Translations under genes and position numbers: made by a program | The notes under the pieces: generated by a model | What the model was told of the DNA's origin: nothing | Database searches by the model: none | What the model saw: the letters and a program-made list of their open reading frames with translations, nothing else | Part shown: in pieces, positions 11,300 through 32,797 of the stretch | How positions within the stretch are numbered: the first letter of the stretch is position 1 | Layout of the letters: each line of letters starts with the position of its first letter | Source of the DNA: an uncultured Spirochaetaceae bacterium | Lineage (GTDB): Bacteria; Spirochaetota; Spirochaetia; SZUA-6; Bin103 | DNA: 42,718 bases | NCBI GenBank assembly: GCA_964346995.1 | Contig: CAYFXT010000001.1 | Span: 1-42,718, forward strand | Direction of reading: 5' to 3'

Positions 11300-12528
11300 T
11301 GCCGGCTGCCCGGCCGGCTGCTGCCCGCGCTTGCCAGGAAGGAGCGGATGATGCGTGTCTGTCGTTCGGTTTCGATCAGGAACGAGTCGTGGCCGTGCGG
11401 GCTGTCGATCTCGACGTAGGAAACGTCGTTGCCGGCCTGCATGAGGGCGCTCACGATCGCCTTCGATTGGCGCGACGGATAAAGCCAGTCCGAGGTAAAG
11501 GAGACCAGCAGGAACTTGGCGTGGCTCCGGTCGAAGGCGGCGGCCAGGCTGCCGGGGCGGCCGTTCAGGTCGTAGTAATCCATCGCTTTGGTGATGTACA
11601 GGTAGGAGTTGGCGTCGAACTGATCGGCGAACTGGCGCCCCTTGTAATCGAGGTAGCTCTCCACTTCGAATTCGTGGGAGAAGTCGTACTCGAACCGTTC
11701 CCGCTCCTGCAGCTTGCGCCCGAACCGCTTCCCGAGCGACTCGTCCGACAGGTAGGTAAGGTGGCCGACCATGCGGGCCGTGGCCAGACCGCGCCGCGGC
11801 TGGTCGCGGCCGTAGTAATCGCCGTCGCGCCAGCCGGCGTCGGTGGTGATGGCGTTACGTCCGATGGCGTGAAAGGCGATGCCCTGCGCGGAAATGGTAG
11901 CGGTGGAAGCGAGAATGATCGCCGACTGCACCATCTCCGGGAAGCGCACCGTCCACTCCAGCGCTTGCATGCCCCCCATCGACCCGCCGGCAACGCAATG
12001 GATATGGTCGAGGCCGAGGTGGCGCACCAGTTCCCGCTGCGCGGTGACCATGTCGCCGATGGTGATCACCGGGAAGTTCAGACCGTACGGCTTGCCGGTG
12101 GCGGGATCGATCGACGCGGGTCCGGTGCTGCCGTGACAGCCACCGATGAAGTTGGAACAGACGACGAAGTAGCGGTTGGTGTCGAACGCCTTGCCGGGAC
12201 CGATCATCGCGTCCCACCACCCCGGACGCCGGTCTTCGGGCGTGTGGTATCCCGCTGCGTGGTGGCTGCCCGAGGTAGCGTGGAACACCAGCACCGTGTT
12301 GTCGCGTGCGGCATTCAGCTCTCCGTAGGTTTCGTAGCGAACGTTGATCGGGCCGAGGCTGCGACCACTCTCCAGAACCATCAGGTCGGGCGACTCCGCA
12401 AATGCGTAGTCGTACGGCTCCACCAGACCGACCGATGACGGATGCTGCCACGGATGCGGCGTGGCCGGCGAAGTGGGTCTCGACGTGCTGTTCATGTGGA
12501 GAAGGCGCGGGATCCGGTCCGCTTCCAA
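11296..12528 (-). CDS. metX: Homoserine O-acetyltransferase MetX
   Basis: The sequence FVVCSNFIGGCHGSTGPAS...GLNFPVITIGDMV...VAGGSMGGMQALEW shows the alpha/beta-hydrolase nucleophile elbow GxSxGG. The start is either TTG 12528 or ATG 12495, and the putative promoter at 12547-12576 is compatible with both. Confidence 0.92.
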   Translation of the reverse strand: MEADRIPRLLHMNSTSRPTSPATPHPWQHPSSVGLVEPYDYAFAESPDLMVLESGRSLGPINVRYETYGELNAARDNTVLVFHATSGSHHAAGYHTPEDRRPGWWDAMIGPGKAFDTNRYFVVCSNFIGGCHGSTGPASIDPATGKPYGLNFPVITIGDMVTAQRELVRHLGLDHIHCVAGGSMGGMQALEWTVRFPEMVQSAIILASTATISAQGIAFHAIGRNAITTDAGWRDGDYYGRDQPRRGLATARMVGHLTYLSDESLGKRFGRKLQERERFEYDFSHEFEVESYLDYKGRQFADQFDANSYLYITKAMDYYDLNGRPGSLAAAFDRSHAKFLLVSFTSDWLYPSRQSKAIVSALMQAGNDVSYVEIDSPHGHDSFLIETERQTRIIRSFLASAGSSRPGSRQ

Positions 12529-21266: not shown

Positions 21267-21279
21267 CGGCGGTCGCGCA

Positions 21280-21298
21280 GGCCGTCCTGCCGACGGCC
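21280..21298. terminator. GC hairpin between convergent genes (DUF3500 / Rieske); candidate bidirectional terminator
   Basis: GGCCGTC-ctgcc-GACGGCC is a 7-bp stem with a 5-nt loop. It is centred in the 50-nt gap between stop codons 21264-21266 and 21317-21319. No U-tract is present. Confidence 0.25.
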
Positions 21299-21316
21299 GC
21301 GGGGAGCGTGCCGCCG

Positions 21317-22381
21317 TTACCGCGACTGGCTGCGCAGCGCGTAGCGCCGCTCGGCGTAGGCGGCGTCTTCGACCCACAGGCGGCGTGCCGATGCCTGCAT
21401 GCGGCGTCGCACCAGTCCGGCGGCACGCATCGCCAAGCGAAATCCGAACCGCTCGGAGGTGGCCACCGTGGCTTCGACGATGGCGCAGATCCCGGGCCGC
21501 ACCGGGGTGGCGTGCGTCTCCACCACCGACCCGGCACCCTCGCCGTCGATGATGGTCATGACGATCGTGCGCGGGTCGGGGCAGTGAAAGCGAGCGTCCA
21601 CCTCCACCCCCATGCTCCGGGTGGCGCGATACAGCACCCGCACGGTGATGCTGTCGTCGCGTTGCTCCAGGACTGCGAGGCTGCCGAACGAGTGCGGATG
21701 GAAGTGCACGCCGTGCCACGGATCGAAGCGGTTGGCGATGATGTCCTGCGGCTCGCAACGCGCCTCCATGCGGATCACGGCGTCGATGCCGCTGCTCGGG
21801 CGGGCGCACAGGTATGGGCGAGGCGACGCCGCCTGCTCGCCGTCGAGACGCACCCAGAACAGTACGCCGTCGTCGTGGCTCGGCAGGGGCCGCCAGCCGG
21901 CGTGCCCCTGCGGCCCCAGTACCAGACCGTGCCAGGGGCACACCACACAGCCGTCGCGCACGCGGCCGTCGGCCAGCGACGCCCCCAGGTGCGGGCACGC
22001 ATTGGGGGCCACCAGTGGTCCGTCCGCGCCGCGCCACGCGACCAGTTCGCGGCCCGCGATCCAGTAGCGGCGTGGCGTATCACCGACGGCGCGCGAGGCG
22101 TCGATCGCATACCAGCCGCCGGAGGGCAGCAGGGCGGCGCGGCGTACCGCCTGCCTGATCCAGCGCGGATCCGATTGCCGCCAGTCGGGCATGGCGCGCC
22201 GGTCGCCGGCGGGGAGCGGACCGGCCGGCGGGCGGCCGAAGCGCACGCCTCCGACGCGAGCGTGCCGGCCGGCGGGCGATGCCCGCGCGTCGTCGTCGTT
22301 CGCCTTTCGCGTCGTGGAGCGGCCGCGCCGATTCGTCCGCAAGTCACGTCCCGCCGGCGATGGGCGTGCATCGGGTTTCAT
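21317..22381 (-). CDS. Rieske [2Fe-2S] domain protein with a ~200-aa C-terminal domain; last gene of the carotenoid operon
   Basis: The Rieske motif is intact as CPH-x16-CPWH (CPHLGASLADGRVRDGCVVCPWHG). The C-terminal part carries His-rich blocks (NRFDPWHGVHFHPHSF). The start is ATG 22381 (31 nt after the upstream stop), with ATG 22192 as an alternative that removes an Arg/Pro-rich N-terminus. Confidence 0.8.
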   Translation of the reverse strand: MKPDARPSPAGRDLRTNRRGRSTTRKANDDDARASPAGRHARVGGVRFGRPPAGPLPAGDRRAMPDWRQSDPRWIRQAVRRAALLPSGGWYAIDASRAVGDTPRRYWIAGRELVAWRGADGPLVAPNACPHLGASLADGRVRDGCVVCPWHGLVLGPQGHAGWRPLPSHDDGVLFWVRLDGEQAASPRPYLCARPSSGIDAVIRMEARCEPQDIIANRFDPWHGVHFHPHSFGSLAVLEQRDDSITVRVLYRATRSMGVEVDARFHCPDPRTIVMTIIDGEGAGSVVETHATPVRPGICAIVEATVATSERFGFRLAMRAAGLVRRRMQASARRLWVEDAAYAERRYALRSQSR

Positions 22382-22412
22382 GGTCTTCGGCGTCGCGGAG
22401 CGGACGTGCCAC

Positions 22413-24581
22413 TCATGCGAAGATTCCGGGAAGCAAGCCGTGACTGCGCACCGAGGAGAGCGGCTCTGCCGGAAGGTTCCAGCGCTCGAGGATGGCGTTG
22501 GCTGCGGTGATGCCGCTCGCCGCGGCGCGCTCCATGAGCGCGGCCGGCTGCTCGAGGCGCACGAAGTCGCCCGCCAGATACACCCCGGGATGTGGCGTGA
22601 CCACGCCCGGCCGGCTGGCGTGCGATCCGGCCCCGAACGCCGGGCAGTCGCGGCGCAGCAGAAACGCTTCGTCGATCACCCGCGCAGCCTGAGTCTCTGG
22701 ATAGAGCCGGTGCAGGCCGGCGATCAGTGCCGCCCTGATTTCCGCGCCGGTGGCGTTCTCCGGCACCGCGTAGGCGTGCAATTCCACCACCGCACCGCCG
22801 TGGACATCGGCCCAGGCGCGGCTCTCGTCCTCGAACAGGTGGAACAGAGAAATGTTGTCCAGCAACGGCAAGCCGGCGGTGCCGGCGAACGGCACCCGGC
22901 CCGGATCGGTGGGGCGGTCCAGCCACAGCCGCCACACCGCGAACGGCAGGGTGGTCGCCAGGGAGCGAAGCGCCGTGGCCCATGCCCCGCGCGGGAGTGG
23001 CGTCTCCGGCAGCAGCCGCTGCAAGCCGGGTACGTCGAGGGCAAGCACCAGGGCGTCGGCGCCGATCGACGCCCGGCCGTGCTCGCGAGGAATCACCACC
23101 CAGCGGCCTGCTTCCCGCCTGATGCGGCTGATCGGGGTTCCGGTCGCGACCTGCACACCCAGGTTGGTCAGGTAGCGGCGCAGCGGTTGCCAGATGGCGG
23201 TCGAGAACGGCGCCCGCGCGACGTCGAAGATCAGTCCCTCGCGGCTCCCGGTGAAGTAGAAGTGGAACATCATGAGCAGCTCGGCCGCCGACATCTCCCG
23301 CTCCGGGTTGAAGAAGGAGTGCGCGAATACATCGAACAGCAGGCGCCGCGCGGCGGCCGGGAAGCGCAGCGAATCGAGGTAGTCGGCGGCCGAACGGCGG
23401 TCGTGGCGCCGGTAGGTGTGGTGGGCATCGAACGCCAGCATCGCCAGCGCCTGGCGCACGCCGACGCGCCGCAGCGCGTGCCGGGTCAGCTCCGGTGTAC
23501 GGCGGGTGAGCGCAACCACGTTCCACGGTGTCCGTTTCGGCAGACCGACCAGGGACTGACGGGCGCCGTCGGGACCCAGGATCGGGTAGTCCTCCAGCGG
23601 CACCAGGATGTCGAGGTCCGGCGAGATGCGCCGCAGCAGGTTGCGCAGGTTGTAGTACTGGCGAAAGAAGGCGTGGAAGCCGCGTGCCATCTGTACGGTC
23701 TCGCCAGTCGCGACGCGCAGCGGGAAGGCGCCGGCGCGGCCGCCGAGCGCGTTCTCCCGTTCCAGCAACACCGTTGCGACGCCGCGTTCGGCGAGTACCG
23801 TGGCCGCCGCCGTGCCGGCGATGCCGCCTCCCACCACCACCGCCGTACGCCGTACCGCGTCGCGGCCGTCGTAAGCGGGCGCCGTGGCCGCCGGCCGGCG
23901 CGCCAGGAAGGAGTGCACGATGCCGCGCTGCCATCCGCTCACCGGTAGCGTGCGCACCGCCGTGAAGCCGGCGCGATTGAGGCGCCGTTCGAAGGCCCTC
24001 CGGCTGTCGAACGCCAGTACGCTGTCCCTGAGGTAGGTGAACAGGCTGCCCTCACCGGCTGCGATGCGCGCCGCCGGACGCACGATCAGGTTGGTCACCG
24101 TACGCCACAGCAGGCGACTGGCGCGTGAGCCGGCAACGGAATATTCGTGGAAGCAGACCGGTGCGGCAGGGCACAGCAGGTCGCGTACGGCGGCCAGGCA
24201 GGCGTCGGCATCGACGACGTTGCGAATGCCGTAGGCCATCAGGACGCCGTCGAAGCGGCCTTCCACGCCGGCGCCGCGCGGGTCCATCGCGTCGCCGTGC
24301 ACGAATTGCACGTCCGCCAGCTCGGGACGGGCCCGCGCCGCCTGCAGCATGTCGGCGGCGGCGTCGAGGCCGACCAGCGTGGCCTGCGGGTAGGTGGCGC
24401 GCAGCGCCAGGGTCGACTGGCCGGTGCCGCAGCACAGGTCGAGGATGCGCGCGTCCGGCGCCAACTCCAGGCGGCGGGCGCTCAACCGTAGATGGCGGCG
24501 GTAGCCGGGGTTGAGCGCCACCAGGAGGTCGTACGCATGGGCTACCCGGTTGAAGCCGGCGGCCAGCTCATCCCCGATCAA
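22413..24581 (-). CDS. Fusion protein: N-terminal class I SAM-dependent methyltransferase plus C-terminal FAD-dependent Pds/Zds/CrtU-type carotenoid desaturase
   Basis: The MT domain shows ILDLCCGTGQS...VHGDAMDP...FDGVLMAYGIRNV. The oxidoreductase domain shows the dinucleotide fold VVVGGGIAGTAAATVLAERG..V.LLER...GGRAG, FHAFFRQYYNLRNLL (plant-type desaturase block) and the C-terminal VYLAGDF. The preferred start is TTG 24581 (GGAG 5 nt upstream, no overlap with crtB). In-frame alternatives are ATG 24647 and the track's 24701. Confidence 0.8.
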   Translation of the reverse strand: MIGDELAAGFNRVAHAYDLLVALNPGYRRHLRLSARRLELAPDARILDLCCGTGQSTLALRATYPQATLVGLDAAADMLQAARARPELADVQFVHGDAMDPRGAGVEGRFDGVLMAYGIRNVVDADACLAAVRDLLCPAAPVCFHEYSVAGSRASRLLWRTVTNLIVRPAARIAAGEGSLFTYLRDSVLAFDSRRAFERRLNRAGFTAVRTLPVSGWQRGIVHSFLARRPAATAPAYDGRDAVRRTAVVVGGGIAGTAAATVLAERGVATVLLERENALGGRAGAFPLRVATGETVQMARGFHAFFRQYYNLRNLLRRISPDLDILVPLEDYPILGPDGARQSLVGLPKRTPWNVVALTRRTPELTRHALRRVGVRQALAMLAFDAHHTYRRHDRRSAADYLDSLRFPAAARRLLFDVFAHSFFNPEREMSAAELLMMFHFYFTGSREGLIFDVARAPFSTAIWQPLRRYLTNLGVQVATGTPISRIRREAGRWVVIPREHGRASIGADALVLALDVPGLQRLLPETPLPRGAWATALRSLATTLPFAVWRLWLDRPTDPGRVPFAGTAGLPLLDNISLFHLFEDESRAWADVHGGAVVELHAYAVPENATGAEIRAALIAGLHRLYPETQAARVIDEAFLLRRDCPAFGAGSHASRPGVVTPHPGVYLAGDFVRLEQPAALMERAAASGITAANAILERWNLPAEPLSSVRSHGLLPGIFA

Positions 24582-24600
24582 TCCGACTCCGGCGTCCGGC

Positions 24601-25566
24601 TCATGCCACTTCCAGATCGGCGAAACGCAGCACGCGGCGCGGTGCATGGAATCTTCCACGCGGCACCCGCCAACGCGCCGGCAACTCGCCAACGGCGGCA
24701 CCGGTGGCGCCGAGCACCGCGGCCAGCTTACCGGCCAGCGGCACTACCGCCCGACCCGCGGTCACGTCGCAGCCCGCCTGTCTGATGCGTCCGCCGATCG
24801 CCGCGTAGATCGCGCGGGCGGCGCGGATCGACAGCGCCGCGCGCCACGGCAGCGCCAGGAACCCCGCCTCGGCGGCGCCGTAGAAGCGGCCGGCATTCGC
24901 CAGCACCTCGCCGACCACGGCGCGCAGCGGATCGCGCGCCGTGCCGGGGAAGGCATGGCCGAGTTGCGCCGGCAGGTCGCCGAGCCGGGCGCGATCGAGG
25001 CAGGTGCGCGGCAGGTAGATGCGGCCCAGATGCCAGTCCTCCAGCACGTCGCGGCAGATGTTGGTGAGCTGCATTGCCACGCCGAGTTGCGCGGCCGCCT
25101 GCAGGGCGGCGTCGTCGCGCAACGTCAGGACGTGGGACATCATCAATCCGACGGTACCCGCGACGCGGTAACAGTAGTGCAGCAGGTCGTGCAGGTCGGC
25201 GTATACCGGTCGATCGATATCCGTACTCATGCCGGTCAGCATCTCGCGCGGATAGTGCAGCGGCATCGCCGTGGCGCGCACCACCGCGCCGAACGCATCG
25301 ACCACCGGGTCGCCGGTCGAAGCGCCTTCGGCGAGGCGCTCCAGCTCCGCGTGCAATTGCGCGAGCGCCACCCGGCTTGCGGCTGGCGGCACGCCGTCGA
25401 CGGCATCGTCGGCGCGCCTGCACCAGGCGTACACCACCAGAGCGCCGCGCCGGCTATGGCGCGGTAGCAGGCGCGCCGCCAGGGCGAAGCTCCTCGACCC
25501 GGCGGCGATGCGGCGCCGGCAGTCGGCCTCCACCGCCGTCGTTATGCGCAGCGCGGTATGGCTCAC
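24601..25566 (-). CDS. crtB: Phytoene synthase
   Basis: Contains SFALAARLLP, YAWCRRADDAVDG (first Asp-rich motif), YCYRVAGTVGLMM and QLTNICRDVLEDWHLGRIYLP. The GTG start at 25566 overlaps the crtI TGA (25563-25565) as GTGA. Confidence 0.93.
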   Translation of the reverse strand: MSHTALRITTAVEADCRRRIAAGSRSFALAARLLPRHSRRGALVVYAWCRRADDAVDGVPPAASRVALAQLHAELERLAEGASTGDPVVDAFGAVVRATAMPLHYPREMLTGMSTDIDRPVYADLHDLLHYCYRVAGTVGLMMSHVLTLRDDAALQAAAQLGVAMQLTNICRDVLEDWHLGRIYLPRTCLDRARLGDLPAQLGHAFPGTARDPLRAVVGEVLANAGRFYGAAEAGFLALPWRAALSIRAARAIYAAIGGRIRQAGCDVTAGRAVVPLAGKLAAVLGATGAAVGELPARWRVPRGRFHAPRRVLRFADLEVA

Positions 25567-27116
25567 GGGGCCAGGTCCGCCAGGACCAGATCGGCCGTGG
25601 CGCGCGCCGAGTTGATCACGCCCGGGATACCGGCACCGGGGTGGGTGCCGGCGCCCACCAGATAGAGCCCCGCGATATGGGGATCGCGGTTGGGCACCCG
25701 AAACCAGGCGCTCTGGGTGAGGGTCGGCGCCAGCGAGAATGCGCTGCCGTGGTAGGCATGCAGGGCAGTGCGGAAGTCCAGCGGCGTCATCCAGCGGGAC
25801 ACTACGACGTGGCGGCGCAGATCGGGAAGGACCCGTTCCAGGGCGGTGAGGATACGTTCCGCGTAGGCCGGAGCGATCCTATCCCAGGTCAGCGCCGCGT
25901 TGCCCAGGTGGGGTACCGGGGACAGTACGTAGAACGCACCGTGTCCCGGCGGCGCCAACGACGGGTCGGTGACGTGCGGCGCGTGCAGGTAGAGTGAGAG
26001 ATCTTCCGGCAGCCGCGCGCCGTGGAAGATGTCGGTCAGCAGTTCCCGGTAGCGTGCTCCGAACAGTACCGAGTGATGGACGACGTTGTCGCGGTAATCG
26101 CGGTCGGTGCCGAAGTAGAGCACGAACAGCGACATCGACCACACCGAGCGTTCCAGGCGGCGCTGGCGCCGCGCCGCGCCCGCGTCGCCGCGGTACAACA
26201 CGGCATAGGTGTGATGCACGTCGGCGTTGGACACCACGGCGTCGAACGGTTCGAGTCGCGCCGCGCCCGCGTGCGCGTAGCTGAGCCGGTGCGTCACCTG
26301 GCCGCGGTCTTCGGTCGGCACGACGTGGCGCACCGGGCAGTCCAGCAGCAGCCGTCCGCCGAGGTCGGTGAACAGCCGGGCCAGGGCGCGCACCAGGACG
26401 CCGACCCCGCCGCGCGGGTAGAATACGCCCCAGCGGCGTTCGAGGAAGTGGACGAGGGTGTAGATGGCGCTGGTCTCGAACGGATTGCCGCCCACCAGCA
26501 GGGTGTGGAAGCTGAGCGCCTGACGCACCCGCTCGTCGCCGATGAAGCGCGCCACGGTGCGGTACACCGAACGGTCGGCGCGCAGGCCGATGAGTTGCGG
26601 CGCGACCCGTACCATATCCCAGAACCGCAGGAAGGGGGTGGCGGCCAGTTCCTCGTAGCCGGTCTGGAACACCGCTCGCGTGTAGTCGTGAAAACGGCGG
26701 TAACCATCCCGATCGGGCGGATTGCGCCGTCCGATCTCCGCGGCCAGAGCGCCGCCGTCGGCGCAGTAGTCGAACCGGTCACCATCCGGCCACAGCAGCC
26801 GGTAGAGCGGATCGACGGCGATCAGCTCTACCCGGTCGGCAAGTGCGCTGCCGGCGACCGCGAACAGGTCCTCCAGCAGCGTCGGGTCGGTGATCACCGT
26901 GGGGCCCATGTCGAAGGTGAATCCACCCTGACGCCAGACGTACGCCCTGCCACCCGGCTCGGCGCGAGCCTCGAACAGCGTGGTCGCGATGCCCGCCGCC
27001 TGCAGGCGAATGGCGGCCGCGAGCCCACCGAAACCGCTGCCCACAACCGCCACCCGGCGGGTGCGTCGGGCGGCGGGCGCTGCGCCGGGCGGCGGCGGCG
27101 CGCGGCTGGCGGTCAC
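25563..27116 (-). CDS. crtI: Phytoene desaturase (CrtI type)
   Basis: Contains VAVVGSGFGGLAAAIRLQAAGI..TLFEA...GGRA and the CrtI C-terminal signature LYLVGAGTHPGAGIPGV. GTG 27116 overlaps the crtY TGA (27113-27115) as GTGA; the track start GTG 27122 is also possible. Confidence 0.93.
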   Translation of the reverse strand: MTASRAPPPPGAAPAARRTRRVAVVGSGFGGLAAAIRLQAAGIATTLFEARAEPGGRAYVWRQGGFTFDMGPTVITDPTLLEDLFAVAGSALADRVELIAVDPLYRLLWPDGDRFDYCADGGALAAEIGRRNPPDRDGYRRFHDYTRAVFQTGYEELAATPFLRFWDMVRVAPQLIGLRADRSVYRTVARFIGDERVRQALSFHTLLVGGNPFETSAIYTLVHFLERRWGVFYPRGGVGVLVRALARLFTDLGGRLLLDCPVRHVVPTEDRGQVTHRLSYAHAGAARLEPFDAVVSNADVHHTYAVLYRGDAGAARRQRRLERSVWSMSLFVLYFGTDRDYRDNVVHHSVLFGARYRELLTDIFHGARLPEDLSLYLHAPHVTDPSLAPPGHGAFYVLSPVPHLGNAALTWDRIAPAYAERILTALERVLPDLRRHVVVSRWMTPLDFRTALHAYHGSAFSLAPTLTQSAWFRVPNRDPHIAGLYLVGAGTHPGAGIPGVINSARATADLVLADLAP

Positions 27117-28462
27117 GGGCACGACTGCGCTGCGCCCCGCCCGGGGCCACGCTGTCGTTTCCGCCGGTCATCGACAGCGTCGGCGTCCGGACGGTCGAAG
27201 CCCGGCGCAGTGCCGGATCCGTGCGGCTCACGCCTGCTGTGCTGCGCCGCTCGCTCGGCAGCGGGCAGGTGCGAGTCTGCTCCGGCCGCGAGGCGCGCGC
27301 GACCGCCATGCGCGGCTCGCCAATGGCTCGGCGACAGGCCGCGCGGCGGGCGACCGCTCAACAGGCGCAGCTTGTCGCCGCCGGTCAGCCGCAGGGCAAA
27401 GAAACGGCGGATGGTGGGCTCCGGCAAACCGAAGAAGCGTGCGAAGATGTTGCGCCGCGCCGCGGCCGGGTAGGCGTGAAACAGCAGCCGGTTGAGCAGG
27501 CAGCAGAAGCGGGCGCGGCGCTGCAGTTGGCCGCGCGCGGCGGCCGCGGCGGCCGGCAGCCGTGCCGCCGGCGTCGTCGCGGCCAGCACCGCCAGCTCGG
27601 CCGCCAGCGGCAGCGAGTAGCCGGTGCCGGGATGGAACCAGCCGCCGCGGTAGCCGCCGTGCACGATGCCGGCCGCCGCCCGGGTCGGCGGATCCGGCAT
27701 CCGCCACGGCATCGGCAGGACGCCCTGCTCCGTTCGGGTCACCGCCTGCGCGCGCCAGCCGTGGCGGCGCAGCCATGCGGCAATGGCCTGCTGCCGCTGC
27801 GCCACGTCGAGGTGCGGTCGATCCGAGAACGAGGTGTCCTCGACCAGAGCGCGGCGCCCGGAGAGCGGCAACACGTACATGAAGCGGAACCCGTCGTACT
27901 GCGGCACGGTGGCGTCCATCACCAGGGGCCACTCCAGGCCGTGCGGTTCGTGCAGCGTGATCTCCTGCCCGTAGAATTTCTGGTAGCCACCGCGCGCGCC
28001 GGCACCATCGGCTCCGCGGGCGTCGACCACGGTGGCGCCGCGCACCGTACGTCCATCCGCCAGGTGCACCATGCCGGGGGCGACCCGATCGACCTGCGCG
28101 TGCTCCCACGCCAGCACGCCATCGCGGCCGGCGAGCAGCGCCAGGACCACGGCGCGCAGGCGCACGCTGGCGATCATGGCGTAAGGGGTGTGCAGGCGGC
28201 GCCGGAATCCGGGGAAGCGCACCTCGTAGCTGCTCCACCTGTGGCTGACGAACGGGTCCACCTGCCGGCGCATGGCCGGTGAGAGATCGCTTTCGTAGAA
28301 ACACCAGGTGTGGTTGCCGCCGATCTCACCGCGCTCCAGCAGAGCCACGCTTGGGCGTGGTCCCGCCGTTCCCAATCCCGGTGAGGCATACAGCGCCGCC
28401 ACGACCAGCGCGTTCTGCAACCCGCCTCCGCACAGAATCAGATCCGCCTCGTGCGCCGCCAC
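27113..28462 (-). CDS. crtY: Lycopene beta-cyclase (CrtY type) with a ~60-aa C-terminal extension
   Basis: Contains DLILCGGGLQNALVVAAL, GGYRGGWFHPGTGYSLP and FFGLPEPTIRRFFALRLTGGDKLRLLSGRPP. The GTG start at 28462 lies 5 nt after the crtE stop. Confidence 0.88.
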   Translation of the reverse strand: MAAHEADLILCGGGLQNALVVAALYASPGLGTAGPRPSVALLERGEIGGNHTWCFYESDLSPAMRRQVDPFVSHRWSSYEVRFPGFRRRLHTPYAMIASVRLRAVVLALLAGRDGVLAWEHAQVDRVAPGMVHLADGRTVRGATVVDARGADGAGARGGYQKFYGQEITLHEPHGLEWPLVMDATVPQYDGFRFMYVLPLSGRRALVEDTSFSDRPHLDVAQRQQAIAAWLRRHGWRAQAVTRTEQGVLPMPWRMPDPPTRAAAGIVHGGYRGGWFHPGTGYSLPLAAELAVLAATTPAARLPAAAAAARGQLQRRARFCCLLNRLLFHAYPAAARRNIFARFFGLPEPTIRRFFALRLTGGDKLRLLSGRPPRGLSPSHWRAAHGGRARLAAGADSHLPAAERAAQHSRREPHGSGTAPGFDRPDADAVDDRRKRQRGPGRGAAQSCP

Positions 28463-28467
28463 CGCCG

Positions 28468-29559
28468 TCAGGGACGCCGCGCCAGAACGGCCCCGATCAT
28501 ATCGAGCAACGCCGCGCGGTGCGCCGGCTCCACGGTCAGCGCCGCAGCCCGTCGCCGCGCTTCGGCCGCGGTGCGCTCCAGGTGGGTGCCGACCAGCTCG
28601 CGGATTCCGGCGCGGTCGACCGCCGCGCGCACGCGCAGCAGGTCATCGAAACGCAGCGCGCGGTTGCCGAACAGCGGAGCGATCGCGGCCCACTCGGCCG
28701 GCCGCAGGCGCCGGCTCAACAGCGCATAGAACAGCGTGTGTCGTCCCTCCCGCGCGTCATTGCCGATCGGCTTGCCCAGCTCCTGCGCGTCGCCGAACAG
28801 GTCGAGCTCATCATCGATGATCTGGAACATCTGTCCCGTGCAGTGCCCGATGGCGCCGAGCTCGGTCACCGTGTCGGCGTCCAGACCGCTCAACAAGCCG
28901 CCGACCGTTAGCGGTAGCGCGCACGAGTAGCCGGCGGTCTTCTGCGCGTATACCTCGAAGATCGCGCTGTCGTCGCACCGATGGTCGAGGGCGAGCCGTA
29001 TTTCGTGCATCTCGCCGAGGCCGGCGGCGCCGACCGTCCGGGTGATGACGGTAAGCAGTCGCTGCTTGGTGGCGGCGTCGACGCCGAGTTGAGCCAGCAT
29101 CTCGAAGGCGAAGAAGAACCCCACGTCGCCGGCGCACAACGCCATGCTGCGCCCCACGTGGGCCGCCCGCCTGGGGTCACGCCGGGCGGCGACCCGCGCA
29201 TAGCGCACGTGCCACGCCGGCAGACCGCGCCGCGCCTCGCTACGGTCGATGAGGTCGTCATGAATCAGCATGGCGGAGTGCAGCAACTCCAGCGCGGCCG
29301 CGCAGCGCAGTACCTCCTCCGGCAGCGGTCCCGCGCGTCCGATCCGATAAGCCAGGATCACCAGCATGGCGCGCATCATCTTGCCGCGGCATACGTACCG
29401 CGCATAGCCGCGAGCCACGTCGCCGTTGGCGTCGCCGTGCTCCTTGGCGTCGAGGAATTGTTCGAGAAACCGCTCTACCGCCTGCCGGTCGCCCGCAACG
29501 AACGGAACCGGCAGGTGCGTCGGTGCGCGCCGGGACTGTGTTCGCAGCGGTGCCGCCAC
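28468..29559 (-). CDS. crtE: Polyprenyl (geranylgeranyl) diphosphate synthase
   Basis: The first Asp-rich motif is LLHSAMLIHDDLIDRS and the second is GQMFQIIDDELDLFG. The GTG start shares 1 nt with the upstream TAG (29559). Confidence 0.88.
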   Translation of the reverse strand: MAAPLRTQSRRAPTHLPVPFVAGDRQAVERFLEQFLDAKEHGDANGDVARGYARYVCRGKMMRAMLVILAYRIGRAGPLPEEVLRCAAALELLHSAMLIHDDLIDRSEARRGLPAWHVRYARVAARRDPRRAAHVGRSMALCAGDVGFFFAFEMLAQLGVDAATKQRLLTVITRTVGAAGLGEMHEIRLALDHRCDDSAIFEVYAQKTAGYSCALPLTVGGLLSGLDADTVTELGAIGHCTGQMFQIIDDELDLFGDAQELGKPIGNDAREGRHTLFYALLSRRLRPAEWAAIAPLFGNRALRFDDLLRVRAAVDRAGIRELVGTHLERTAAEARRRAAALTVEPAHRAALLDMIGAVLARRP

Positions 29560-30836
29560 TACCGGTGCAGGTCGTACACGCGGTAGCCGTCATCGCGGAT
29601 TCGCTTCAGATAGAAGGAATCGCGCGGTATGGACCTCTCGCAGCCGTGGCTCGGAGCTCGGTAGCCGGCGGCGTTGGTGCCGTCGTCGGCCACCCAGCGG
29701 TCGTAGTCGTCGGAGGGCGCTTCCTGTGCGTGGTTGAGGGCGGAGTCCATGTCCCAGCGGCGGATCACCTCCGGAGCGCGCTCGGCGACCTGCCCACTGA
29801 GCGCCACGGCGGTGTTGCCGGAACCGTAGGAAAGCATCAGCAGCCGTTCGCCGACCATGCCGTCGCCGCGTCGCTGGCAGCGGCGGTTCAGCAGGGAGGC
29901 GAGGCTGAGGAACACCGATCCCGAGTACAGGTTGCCGACGATCGCGGCCGGCTGAATCGAAGCGTCGAAGTCGCGCTGCGCGAGGTACCGTTGCACGTCC
30001 GCTCCCGAATAGCCGAGGTACCTGGTGACCAGCGATCCCATCATCTCCAGTGGGAGATGGTGGTAGGGCGCATGGAAGGCGAACAGGTCGGTGTTGCGCA
30101 ACGTCTCGGCCGGGGTTTCGCCAGCGCGGTTGCAGTGGTCCAGGAACGCCTCCTCGATCGTCTCCTTGTAGCAATGGATCGAAAACGAGCCGCGCACGCG
30201 CGGCGTCTTGGCTCCCACCGGGCGGAAGAAGTCGTCCACGTCCCGCGATGCGTAGCCGGCGCTGGCCACGTCCAGCTCCACCAGACCGCAGCCCCGTTCC
30301 GCTATCATGGCGACCGCACCGGCGCCCTGGGTAATTTCGGCGCTGGTACCGGGTGCGTAGCGCGCAACGTCGGTACAGATCACCAGACCACGGTCGTTGC
30401 TGACCCGGCTCAGGGAGAGGAGCGCATTGACGCCGAGCAGTGAATAGGTGCCACCGGCGCAGGCGTGCTGCGTCTGGAAGGTGGCAATGGTGCTCGGAAT
30501 GGGAAAACCGGCGGCCCGCAACATGCCGCCGACGTGGGCGGCGATCGGCTTGGCCAGATCGGTTGCGGATTCGGTGCCTACCGCGATGTAGCGAAGGCTC
30601 GCGATGGCGCTGTCGCTCATGCGCGACAGCACCTGCATGGCCGCCTGAGCGGCCATGGTCACCGCATCCTCCCAGAAATGGGGAAAGCGCACGGAGATCT
30701 GTCCCGTTTTCTGGATGGCGCGGTCGAGAATGCGCTGGATGGTCGGATTGGACAATGCGTAGCGTTCGAGCAGGCGGCTCAAGCGCATGAGCAGCTTGGG
30801 GATGTAGACGGCCATGTCGCCGATACCGGTGGTCAT
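29559..30836 (-). CDS. Hydroxymethylglutaryl-CoA synthase family protein
   Basis: The HMGS catalytic triad contexts are present: GTESATDLAKP (Glu), TQHACAGGT (Cys) and FAFHAPYHHL (His). Also present are GNLYSGSVFLSLASLL and the C-terminal FYLKRIRDDGYRVY block. ATG 30836 has GGAGGA 6 nt upstream; the track's 108 extra N-terminal codons are rejected. Confidence 0.82.
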   Translation of the reverse strand: MTTGIGDMAVYIPKLLMRLSRLLERYALSNPTIQRILDRAIQKTGQISVRFPHFWEDAVTMAAQAAMQVLSRMSDSAIASLRYIAVGTESATDLAKPIAAHVGGMLRAAGFPIPSTIATFQTQHACAGGTYSLLGVNALLSLSRVSNDRGLVICTDVARYAPGTSAEITQGAGAVAMIAERGCGLVELDVASAGYASRDVDDFFRPVGAKTPRVRGSFSIHCYKETIEEAFLDHCNRAGETPAETLRNTDLFAFHAPYHHLPLEMMGSLVTRYLGYSGADVQRYLAQRDFDASIQPAAIVGNLYSGSVFLSLASLLNRRCQRRGDGMVGERLLMLSYGSGNTAVALSGQVAERAPEVIRRWDMDSALNHAQEAPSDDYDRWVADDGTNAAGYRAPSHGCERSIPRDSFYLKRIRDDGYRVYDLHR

Positions 30837-30862
30837 GTGCGCTCCTCCACAATCAGTTCCCG

Positions 30863-31786
30863 TCAAACGGGGTGTTGAACGGTATACCGCAGACGCAATG
30901 TAGCGCGAACTCCATCCAACCCTGCAACTATCGCACCTATCGACTCGATCTCCGGGCGCGCTGCGTCGGCTCCGGCACCGCCGCACAGGATGATTGTACC
31001 CGACTCGATCGACCCTGCCACGACCCGCAAGTCGTGGAGGACGGCCGGCGGCGGGGGGCAGCGGGTCATGCTGATCAGTACCGCACCGGGCCGGTGCACG
31101 GCAACGGTCGCGACGATCCCGGCCGCCGGTACGTCGGCGCCAAGATACACCACGCGCCATCCCTCGCCCGCTGCCACCACGGCCGCCGCCAGGATGCCGA
31201 GCTCATGATGTTCCCCGCTTGCGGTGCCCGCCACCGCCACCGGCGCCTCGACCGAGAGGCGCTGCATGCCGAGCGCTGCGTCCAGGAACGCGCGGAAGGT
31301 AGTCGTGGCAAGGTGCTCGTGGTGAGGCTCCAGGTCGCCACTCGACCATCGCGCACCGATGCGCCGCATCACCGGGGCAATGAGATGCTCGACTACCGCG
31401 ACGTAGCCGTGGTTCACCGCGGCGCGATGCAGCGTGGCCGTCAACCGCCAGGGGTCGAGCACGGATATCGCCTGCTCGCAGTCTTGCATCTGCCGCGCGA
31501 GCGGAACCGCTGACGCGTCCGCGGTATCATGGTGGACCAGCCTGATGATCTCCGCATCGGTCAACCCGGCTATCTCGCCGATCGCCAGACCACCCTGCTG
31601 CGCGGTACGCAGGAGCTGTACGCGCCGAATGTCGCGCTCCGAGTAGCGACGATGCCTGCCTCCGGAACGGTCCGGGACGATCGCTCGATAGCGAAGTTCC
31701 CACATGCGCAATACGTGCTCGCTGAGCCCGGTGCGGCGGGCAACGGCGCCGATCGGGTAGCGGGCAGTTTCGGTACGGCTGCTCAT
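30863..31786 (-). CDS. carH: CarH/LitR-type light-responsive regulator: MerR HTH plus cobalamin-binding domain
   Basis: The MerR HTH is YPIGAVARRTGLSEHVLRMWELRY....PDRS.GGHRRYSERDI. The B12-binding helical-bundle motif W-x9-EH is present (WSSGDLEPHHEH), as is the lower-ligand motif E-x-H-x-x-G (GEHHELG). ATG 31786 was chosen because 31787-31864 has a low-GC, non-coding character. Confidence 0.85.
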   Translation of the reverse strand: MSSRTETARYPIGAVARRTGLSEHVLRMWELRYRAIVPDRSGGRHRRYSERDIRRVQLLRTAQQGGLAIGEIAGLTDAEIIRLVHHDTADASAVPLARQMQDCEQAISVLDPWRLTATLHRAAVNHGYVAVVEHLIAPVMRRIGARWSSGDLEPHHEHLATTTFRAFLDAALGMQRLSVEAPVAVAGTASGEHHELGILAAAVVAAGEGWRVVYLGADVPAAGIVATVAVHRPGAVLISMTRCPPPPAVLHDLRVVAGSIESGTIILCGGAGADAARPEIESIGAIVAGLDGVRATLRLRYTVQHPV

Positions 31787-31801
31787 GCTGGCTTGTTCCA
31801 C

Positions 31802-31830
31802 ATATTCGCGTATGGTGAAACTGGCGTCAA
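31802..31830 (-). promoter_or_regulatory. Candidate promoter of the carH-led carotenoid operon
   Basis: On the minus strand the -35 is TTGACG (31830-31825), followed by a 17-nt spacer and the -10 GAATAT (31807-31802). An imperfect inverted repeat, TTCACCA (31819-31813) and TGTGGAA (31802-31796), brackets the -10. Confidence 0.35.
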
Positions 31831-31891
31831 GATTCGTGGTATCATGATCTAGTAGAGCACGCATATATTTCCATTTTTGTTGAGGTTCGAG

Positions 31892-32797
31892 ATGAAAATT
31901 ATCGTTACCGGGGGTACCGGGCTGATCGGATCGCGGCTCGTGCGGGCGCTGCGGGAGGCTGGCACCAAGTACCAGCCGGTGGTGCTTACCCGTGACCCGC
32001 GGCGAGTTCCGGAAGGCGTGGCCGCGGCGTCATGGCAGCTGGCGAGCGAGGCACCGCCGCGCGGCGTGCTGGACGGCGCCGCCGCGGTGATACATCTGGC
32101 GGGCGAGCCGATCTCCGCCGGGCGCTGGACGGCCGCGCGGCGGGCGCGGATCGAGGAGAGCCGTTGGGCGAGTACGGCGAATCTGGTGCGCGGGCTGGCA
32201 TCTGCACAGCCGTGCCCGCCGGTGCTGCTCGCCGGTTCCGCGGTCGGCTTCTACGGCGACCGCGGCGACGAACTGCTGGATGAGAGCGCCGCGGCCGGAG
32301 ACGGGTACCTGGCCGCGGTCTGCAGGCGCTGGGAGCAGGAGGCGACCGCGGCGGAGAAGCTGGGCGTGCGCGTAGTCTATCTGCGCACCGGTGTGGTGCT
32401 CGCCCGTGAGGGCGGCGCACTGCCCCGCATGGCGGCGCCATTTCGCCTGGGCGCCGGTGGCCGGCTCGGCCACGGGCGCCAATGGATGCCGTGGATCCAC
32501 GTCGACGACGTAGTCGGTCTGCTCCGCCACGCCCTCGCCGATGGCCGGCTGCACGGGCCGCTGAACGTGGTGGCGCCCGGCGCGGCGACCAACGCCGAAC
32601 TGACCCGCGAACTGGGCCAGGTGCTGCGGCGCCCGGCGTTCATGGTAGTGCCGGCACTGGCGCTCAAGCTGCTGTTCGGCGGCATGGGTGCGATGCTGCT
32701 CGCCTCCCAGCGCGTGGTCCCGCGCGCCGCCGAGGCGACCGGCTACCGGTTCCGCTTCGCAAACCTGGATGCAGCGCTGGCCGATCTGCTCGGCTGA
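31892..32797 (+). CDS. TIGR01777-family (SDR39U1/YfcH-like) NAD-dependent epimerase/dehydratase with a DUF1731 C-terminus
   Basis: Begins MKIIVTGGTGLIGSRL and ends with the C-terminal block QRVVPRAAEATGYRFRF..LDAAL.DLL. GAGG lies 6 nt upstream of ATG 31892. It is divergent from carH. Confidence 0.85.
   Translation: MKIIVTGGTGLIGSRLVRALREAGTKYQPVVLTRDPRRVPEGVAAASWQLASEAPPRGVLDGAAAVIHLAGEPISAGRWTAARRARIEESRWASTANLVRGLASAQPCPPVLLAGSAVGFYGDRGDELLDESAAAGDGYLAAVCRRWEQEATAAEKLGVRVVYLRTGVVLAREGGALPRMAAPFRLGAGGRLGHGRQWMPWIHVDDVVGLLRHALADGRLHGPLNVVAPGAATNAELTRELGQVLRRPAFMVVPALALKLLFGGMGAMLLASQRVVPRAAEATGYRFRFANLDAALADLLG

Follow-up and report, generated by a model that had tools for sequence, protein, structure and literature searches.

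Is the carotenoid pathway of an uncultured Spirochaetaceae bacterium switched by light and vitamin B12 through a repressor encoded at the head of the very operon that it would control? The question is raised by a 42,718-nt stretch of DNA, hereafter the window, which is the whole of contig CAYFXT010000001.1 (C1) of a metagenome-assembled genome (MAG G000; assembly GCA_964346995.1; 2.96 Mb in 341 contigs, 88% complete, approximately 69% G+C, compared with 4.6-8 Mb for more complete genomes of the genus). Eight minus-strand open reading frames (ORFs) at 21317-31786 lie in the order carH-hmgS-crtE-crtY-crtI-crtB-crtT::crtU-crtV, where carH encodes a regulator of the CarH/LitR type and hmgS a paralogue of 3-hydroxy-3-methylglutaryl-CoA (HMG-CoA) synthase. 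This gene order and the family of each product, claimed in a first-pass annotation of the DNA, were confirmed by Pfam and NCBIfam matches. We consider it probable that the eight genes form a single transcription unit with one sigma-70-type promoter (31830-31802), repressed by CarH in the dark and released in the light, whose product is an isorenieratene-type carotenoid.

From sequence we infer B12 binding, a light response, repression, autoregulation, co-transcription, and the identity of the product, according to the following scheme. In the dark, the carH product would bind adenosylcobalamin (AdoCbl) and oligomerize, and AdoCbl-CarH would occupy tandem 11-bp repeats over the -35 element, the spacer, and the -10 element of its own promoter, repressing carH and the seven genes downstream. 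In the light, photolysis of the Co-C bond would free the promoter of repressor and the whole unit would be transcribed. The hmgS paralogue would raise entry into the mevalonate pathway, while CrtE, CrtB, CrtI, and CrtY would make beta-carotene, which CrtT::CrtU and CrtV would turn into an isorenieratene-type aromatic carotenoid.

The control region ahead of carH (31787-31891, minus strand), shared with a divergent epimerase-family gene, is 105 bp long and AT-rich. It holds a promoter, with a -35 element TTGACG (31830-31825), a 17-nt spacer, and a -10 element GAATAT (31807-31802), and a candidate CarH operator. All 10 relatives that were aligned, with CarH proteins 47-79% identical, share the element (a/c)TTGAC-N17-GA(g/a)(c/t)(a/t)T ahead of carH. 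CarH operators have been described as three or more tandem 11-bp repeats of the form nnnnTnnACAn that overlap the promoter (PMC9304148). The candidate operator comprises three tandem 11-bp units, namely two direct repeats (DR1, aatcTTGACGc; DR2, cagtTTCACCa) and a pseudo-repeat (tacgCGAATAt), with the DR2 hexamer TTCACC (31819-31814) at +11 from the -35 element and CGAATA at +22, over the -10 element. In seven of 11 aligned promoters T..AC stands exactly +11 from the T of the -35 element, against a mean of 0.4 per offset. Candidate repeats placed over both promoter elements have the geometry expected of a repressor site, and are the main comparative evidence that CarH may act on its own promoter. 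The earlier suggestion that the regulator is the first cistron of the operon it would control is borne out, in that carH is the promoter-proximal gene and the sole conserved promoter, with its CarH-operator-like 11-bp repeats, lies upstream of it. A regulon scan of the MAG for the -35 plus DR2 pattern returned the carH promoter and two intragenic-looking matches only.

The regulator itself (carH, 30863-31786, minus strand) is a class I LitR/CarH-type MerR protein of 307 residues with an AdoCbl-binding domain. The N-termini of its homologues line up at ATG 31786, the start assumed in the earlier annotation, and ATG 31864 is therefore not taken as the start. The hidden Markov model searches proposed there were run, and the protein matches the Pfam models MerR_1 (1.7e-15), B12-binding_2, and B12-binding. 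A MerR helix-turn-helix, a W-x9-EH motif, and an E-x-H-x-x-G motif had all been read from the letters, and regular expressions and alignment verified each of them. Published criteria for CarH are an RxWERRY recognition helix, a Wx9EH motif, and a D/ExHx2G-x41-SxT/V-x22-27-GG motif whose His is the lower axial ligand; an intact Wx9EH separates AdoCbl-dependent CarH from B12-independent CarA, which lacks the Trp of that motif (PMC9304148). All of these are found in the regulator. Its recognition helix is RMWELRY (residues 27-33), of the RxWERRY type with one Leu for Arg, where homologues have WERRY. Wx9EH is intact (W147-x9-E157-H158), and the lower-ligand motif is complete (E192-H-H194-E-L-G197, x41, S239-M-T241, x27, G269-G270). 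Across 16 homologues these key residues, W147 and H158 among them, are invariant, and E157 is nearly so.

Structural comparison points the same way. By sequence, the regulator matches two PDB entries best, 3WHP and 5C8D (E approximately 1e-22), both of them Thermus thermophilus CarH (TtCarH). An AlphaFold2 (AF2) model of the regulator (predicted local distance difference test, 88; predicted template modelling score, 0.70) was used for a Foldseek search of the PDB, in which the top 12 matches were all full-length TtCarH (5C8F, 5C8D, 5C8E; E 3e-16 to 2e-13), with target-normalized TM-scores of 0.75-0.81 on the cobalamin-binding domain. The model and the motifs together suggest an AdoCbl-dependent light-sensor repressor of the CarH type, for which B12 binding and a response to light are predicted. 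A supply of AdoCbl is plausible because MAG G000 encodes a CobA/CobO-type adenosyltransferase (contig C102) and another B12-domain protein. The CobA/CobO type is the only adenosyltransferase in this MAG. In the related genome G003, a PduO-type cobalamin adenosyltransferase gene (G003:C5:4415126-4415602; L061 7079-7612) lies approximately 1.9 kb downstream of the crt operon; the PduO-type family is present in the carH-containing genomes G003 and G004, and was not found in the carH-less complete genomes G001 and G008.

The eight genes are tightly packed, and the junctions given in the first-pass annotation were all re-derived from the sequence as it had them, the last being doubtful because of the choice of start codon. 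A 26-nt gap (30837-30862) containing the Shine-Dalgarno sequence GGAGGAG separates carH from hmgS (29559-30836; 425 residues), whose TAG overlaps the GTG start of crtE (28468-29559) by 1 nt at 29559. The crtE product is a polyprenyl diphosphate synthase of the geranylgeranyl diphosphate type (Pfam polyprenyl_synt, 1.3e-46). After a 5-nt gap (28463-28467) follows crtY (27113-28462), encoding lycopene beta-cyclase (Pfam Lycopene_cycl; TIGR01789 298.5 bits, cut-off 215). GTGA overlaps at 27113-27116 and 25563-25566 then join crtY to crtI (25563-27116; phytoene desaturase; TIGR02734 615 bits, cut-off 238) and crtI to crtB (24601-25566; phytoene synthase; Pfam SQS_PSY, 3.9e-65). The crtT::crtU fusion gene (22413-24581) begins 19 nt after crtB if TTG 24581 is its start, which we consider likeliest; ATG 24647 or GTG 24701 would make the two genes overlap.

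At the final junction, the Rieske ORF is open from ATG 22381, which would leave a 31-nt gap (22382-22412). The first 45 codons of that ORF lack the coding signature in G+C at the third codon position (0.73 vs 0.88; the three positions have 0.73/0.69/0.73 in the part within 22247-22412 vs 0.74/0.57/0.88 in the rest of the ORF), and the Rieske proteins of relatives begin at a Met aligned with V43-V46. For these two reasons GTG 22246 is the likelier start, making crtV 21317-22246 and leaving 22247-22412 as a probable non-coding spacer of 166 nt, or, should ATG 22381 be the start, as an N-terminal extension with little conservation. In relatives the two genes overlap by 4 nt at this junction, with no spacer. 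The segment 22247-22412 is the sole junction of the operon with room for a regulatory element; six of the seven intergenic gaps are too short for promoters or terminators. Consensus scans for internal promoters and terminators over 11.6 kb gave no more matches than shuffled sequence. Two terminator-like sites (30204-30189 and 21457-21443) were rejected, as they lie within coding regions and shuffles predict 3.6 such sites. A hairpin after the operon (21267-21316) was also rejected as a terminator, being not significant (z = -1.5) and without a U tract.

The arrangement is shared widely. Another sample yielded a 273-kb contig with 99.9% identity to the window over 13 kb, on which the genes are called with somewhat different starts. 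The full order carH-hmgS-crtE-crtY-crtI-crtB-crtT::crtU-crtV is found in L005 (a 6.1-Mb contig), in L011, which is genome G003 (a 7.8-Mb contig), and in L062, and partial copies of the operon are found in L008 and L015-L018. In L008, carH and hmgS overlap by a 4-nt ATGA where the window has its 26-nt gap. An order found again in independent assemblies, from relatives with CarH proteins 47-79% identical, is not a product of chance. In L006 and L007 (ENA sample ERZ26167216), a carH-crt operon without hmgS adjoins a restriction-modification/Abi/Fic island. Distant carH homologues were also found in MAGs of Acidobacteriota and Gemmatimonadota (L012-L014), with no crt genes within 10 kb of them.

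Presence of carH varies within the genus. Among 10 other same-genus genomes surveyed (G001-G010), full-length carH was found in G003 and G004, and G002 probably carries it, having a fragment at a contig edge with upstream DNA that matches L008. In G001 (L043, approximately 12150-12300), G005 (L035), G007 (L037), and G008 (L046), an adh_short gene is followed by the last 95-190 nt of carH and then by hmgS, with deletion end-points that differ among the four. G010 (L025) has a decayed carH remnant. G009 (L024) has no carH ORF; it has a carH-type promoter (TTGACG-N17-GAGCTT, with TCCACA at +11) approximately 100 nt upstream of hmgS. This retention of the promoter directly before hmgS, without carH, suggests that the crt genes, too, are transcribed from the carH promoter. 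In a tree of HMG-CoA synthases (HMGS), which is a gene tree with moderate support and not a species tree, genomes with and without carH are intermingled at about four places. What is new here, as the assemblies read, is that most genomes sampled from the genus have lost carH, through deletions of several kinds, and keep the crt genes. CarH control would therefore be dispensable in the lineage, since same-genus genomes keep the crt genes without it.

Several observations weigh against a single CarH-repressed unit. Those same genomes show that the carH promoter is not strictly needed for hmgS-crt, which may have an internal promoter, and a further signal could lie in the probable 166-nt spacer ahead of crtV. 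The operator is imperfect: TnnAC occurs only in DR1, which is the -35 element, and in DR2, a full TnnACA is absent, the third unit is a pseudo-repeat, and the subclade of L005 and L016-L018 lacks TnnAC at +11. The regulator scores 106 bits against the NCBIfam CarH equivalog NF052513, a narrow model with a cut-off of 400, and has Ser after Trp147 where TtCarH has the His that forms its bis-His photoproduct. With respect to the end product, to our knowledge the biochemical roles of CrtT and CrtV have not been established.

Retention of crt genes without carH is also the starting point for the alternative that survives best, although we think it unlikely: two promoters, of which CarH represses the upstream one while a second, in the 3' end of carH or the region of the 26-nt gap, gives constitutive basal expression of hmgS-crt, so that light boosts expression rather than switching it. 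All four genomes with truncated carH (G001, G005, G007, and G008) keep its last 95-190 nt before hmgS despite their different end-points, and within these remnants the block TAGTTGCCGGGTTGGA..TTCGCGCTACATTGCG is nearly unchanged though no longer protein-coding. The block has no good sigma-70 match, however, as its TTGCCG and TACATT are 19 nt apart, and its conservation may be neutral given how close the genomes are (HMGS 87-89% identical). A promoter-like GTGGCA-17-TACAAT does lie inside carH at 31021-30993, but the remnants of G001 and G008 lack it, and one such match in 11.6 kb is the number expected from shuffles (0.8). In favour of a second promoter there is, in addition, a hairpin in G001 between the adh_short gene and the carH remnant.

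A broader proposal built on the same remnants seems to us possible but doubtful. It holds that carH has been lost repeatedly and independently, that each loss kept either the carH promoter or the last ~95 nt of carH, and that this 3' segment would be a second promoter, making the operon a dual-promoter device for basal expression with a light boost and the carH-less relatives its natural constitutive derivatives. If true, these genomes would form a natural series in which to follow a pathway, and with it the step into mevalonate synthesis, as it escapes from light control. For the window, a single promoter under CarH remains the reading that we prefer.

Why should a carotenoid operon contain an HMG-CoA synthase? 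Genes for class II HMG-CoA reductase (HMGR), mevalonate diphosphate decarboxylase (MVD), phosphomevalonate kinase (PMK), and mevalonate kinase (MK) are present on contig C59 of MAG G000. Neither IspH nor IspG was found in this MAG, and a search of five same-genus genomes that are 95-98% complete likewise found no IspH. Given the mevalonate genes and the failure to find IspH or IspG, mevalonate appears to be the only isoprenoid route in the genus. The C59 cluster (L004 5071-11870) has the order HMGR-MVD-(unassigned ORFs)-PMK-MK, without HMGS, with MiaB upstream and alanine dehydrogenase downstream. The crt-linked hmgS is the sole HMGS match in MAG G000, from which one might conclude that the only HMG-CoA synthase of a mevalonate-only organism is under a light switch. 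We rejected that idea, as all 10 of the other same-genus genomes have two HMGS paralogues. The second copy of MAG G000 most likely lies in an assembly gap, because the counterparts of its flanking genes in G001 are found at the ends of contigs C283 and C42. In the HMGS tree the crt-linked copies form a clade with support of 100/100, sister to the second, genus-wide paralogue; the sister genus has a single hmgS, which adjoins HMGR. We regard the operon copy as a carotenoid-dedicated paralogue.

It is quite improbable, in our judgement, that this paralogue does something other than supply mevalonate for carotenoids, such as providing HMG-CoA towards branched-chain starter units, a role proposed for the enzyme of Myxococcus, or adding an acyl decoration to the pigment. 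Its product is above the cut-offs of both Pfam HMG-CoA synthase models (HMG_CoA_synt_N, PF01154, 37.7 bits; HMG_CoA_synt_C, PF08540, 68.4 bits). What leaves room for another role is that it falls below the cut-off of the equivalog TIGR01835 (244.5 vs 360.35 bits), that it shares only approximately 50-52% identity with either the second paralogue or the hmgS that adjoins HMGR in the sister genus, and that its closest PDB relative is the HMG-CoA synthase entry 5HWO, which we take to be the Myxococcus xanthus enzyme. The Myxococcus HMG-CoA synthase also serves synthesis of isovaleryl-CoA. However, VGTE, QHAC, and FHAP align with the Glu, Cys, and His catalytic contexts of 5HWO, and by Pfam the operon has no acyltransferase or glycosyltransferase gene. 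Moreover, three different rearrangements have left hmgS linked to crt genes: in G006, where it lies after the Rieske gene crtV; in G009 and G010, where it adjoins crtY and crtE is missing between the two; and in L018. A published analogue also exists: five Cystobacterineae have a second HMGR gene within their crt-carH cluster, and its role there is taken to be a light-induced supply of precursor (PMC9304148). The precursor gene, described as unusual in the first-pass annotation, thus has a known counterpart.

Least probable is that the regulator senses B12 availability or some signal other than light, or acts as an activator, for while MerR proteins are often activators and other LitR classes work without B12 (PMC9758184), an intact Wx9EH with a full lower-ligand motif is the published discriminator of the AdoCbl photoreceptor CarH from CarA (PMC9304148), and repeats over -35 and -10 are positioned as for a repressor.

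With CarH as the predicted repressor, what would the operon make? The crtT::crtU product has an N-terminal class I S-adenosylmethionine (SAM) methyltransferase domain (Ubie_methyltran) and a C-terminal flavin adenine dinucleotide (FAD)-dependent desaturase domain (Amino_oxidase), and in tblastn it aligns (46% identity, 95% coverage) to two adjacent genes of Streptomyces linear plasmids, whose products are a class I SAM methyltransferase and an FAD oxidoreductase. The annotated context there is lycopene cyclase-methyltransferase-oxidoreductase facing DUF5914-phytoene synthase-phytoene desaturase-polyprenyl synthase, which is the layout of the crtYTU/crtEIBV isorenieratene cluster (PMC8539372). 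The last gene of the operon encodes a Rieske [2Fe-2S] protein with a DUF5914 domain (Pfam, 5.8e-70) that is 48% identical to the DUF5914 gene in the plasmid crtE-I-B-V unit, which has the position of Streptomyces crtV; its Rieske motif (C129-P-H...C148-P-W-H) keeps the CxH...CxxH cluster ligands. Against the Streptomyces anulatus plasmid NZ_CP107824, tblastn identities are 45.5% for T, 46.7% for U, and 48.3% for V, and 33-39% for E, I, B, and Y. The Streptomyces-type set E, I, B, V, Y, T, and U is thus complete in the operon, and the homology of crtT, crtU, and crtV to that cluster leads us to predict an isorenieratene-type aromatic carotenoid. A tailoring module that had been thought unusual therefore has known counterparts in Streptomyces crtT, crtU, and crtV. 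In all relatives examined crtT and crtU are fused, and from this fusion it can be argued that CrtT, an uncharacterized methyltransferase, works together with the aromatizing desaturase CrtU.

In its logic the operon is closest to the myxobacterial carB operon, and in its enzymes to the Streptomyces isorenieratene cluster. In Myxococcus and other Cystobacterineae, CarH is likewise encoded within the carotenogenic (carB) operon that it controls, and is autoregulated (PMC9304148). These bacteria also use mevalonate only, some of them have a further paralogue of an early mevalonate enzyme within the crt cluster, and their operator consists of 11-bp TnnACA-type repeats overlapping the -35 element, of which the window has no full copy. 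In contrast, carH is first here and last there, the embedded enzyme is HMG-CoA synthase here and the reductase there, the CarA/CarS/CarQRS branch is absent here, and the pathway ends in CrtY, CrtT::CrtU, and CrtV here rather than in the products of CrtC and CrtD. TtCarH (5C8D, 5C8E, 5C8F) has the same three-module fold and the same AdoCbl-contacting residues, while differing in overall sequence (approximately 28% identity) and in the His after the motif Trp. The carH of Thermus presumably belongs to a small regulatory operon divergent from crtB, and not to the head of a biosynthetic operon.

In Streptomyces the genes form two convergent operons, and LitR acts via the extracytoplasmic function (ECF) sigma factor LitS. 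The crtEIBV/crtYTU genes with litR-litQ-litS share the enzyme set E, I, B, V, Y, T, and U with the window (T, U, and V 46-48% identical), as well as control of the isorenieratene cluster by a B12-type LitR (PMC9758184; cluster, PMC8539372), whereas the window has a single operon with a crtT-crtU fusion and an additional hmgS, and repression is predicted to be direct. In Bacillus megaterium, LitR/CarH is an AdoB12-bound repressor of light-inducible carotenoid genes (PMC9758184) with operators of three or four 11-bp repeats overlapping the -35 or -10 element (PMC9304148), in another phylum and for another carotenoid pathway.

Control of carotenogenesis by CarH has been worked out well in Myxococcus, Thermus, Bacillus, and Streptomyces, and the predicted mechanism is therefore not new. 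The layout is, although each part of it is already known: the gene for the photoreceptor comes first in a single unit, crtT and crtU are fused, and hmgS stands directly after carH, which puts mevalonate entry under the same predicted light and B12 switch. Carriers of an intact carH and relatives in which it is deleted offer a natural comparison set for when light regulation of a pigment is dispensable. Additionally, a compact single-promoter unit of this kind could serve as a self-contained light-inducible terpenoid cassette.

Two minor points concern the organism and its neighbouring genes. Some MAGs labelled Spirochaetaceae at NCBI have been reported to be misclassified (PMC11656744); the FlaA flagellar sheath family had no match in G000, G001, G003, and G011, and the control genomes were also without a match. 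The divergent gene that shares the carH control region (31892-32797, plus strand) encodes an epimerase-family protein with a DUF1731 domain (Pfam Epimerase and DUF1731; TIGR01777-like), and is a candidate second target of CarH. This epimerase/DUF1731 neighbour is also found in G003, G004, G009, G010, and L018.

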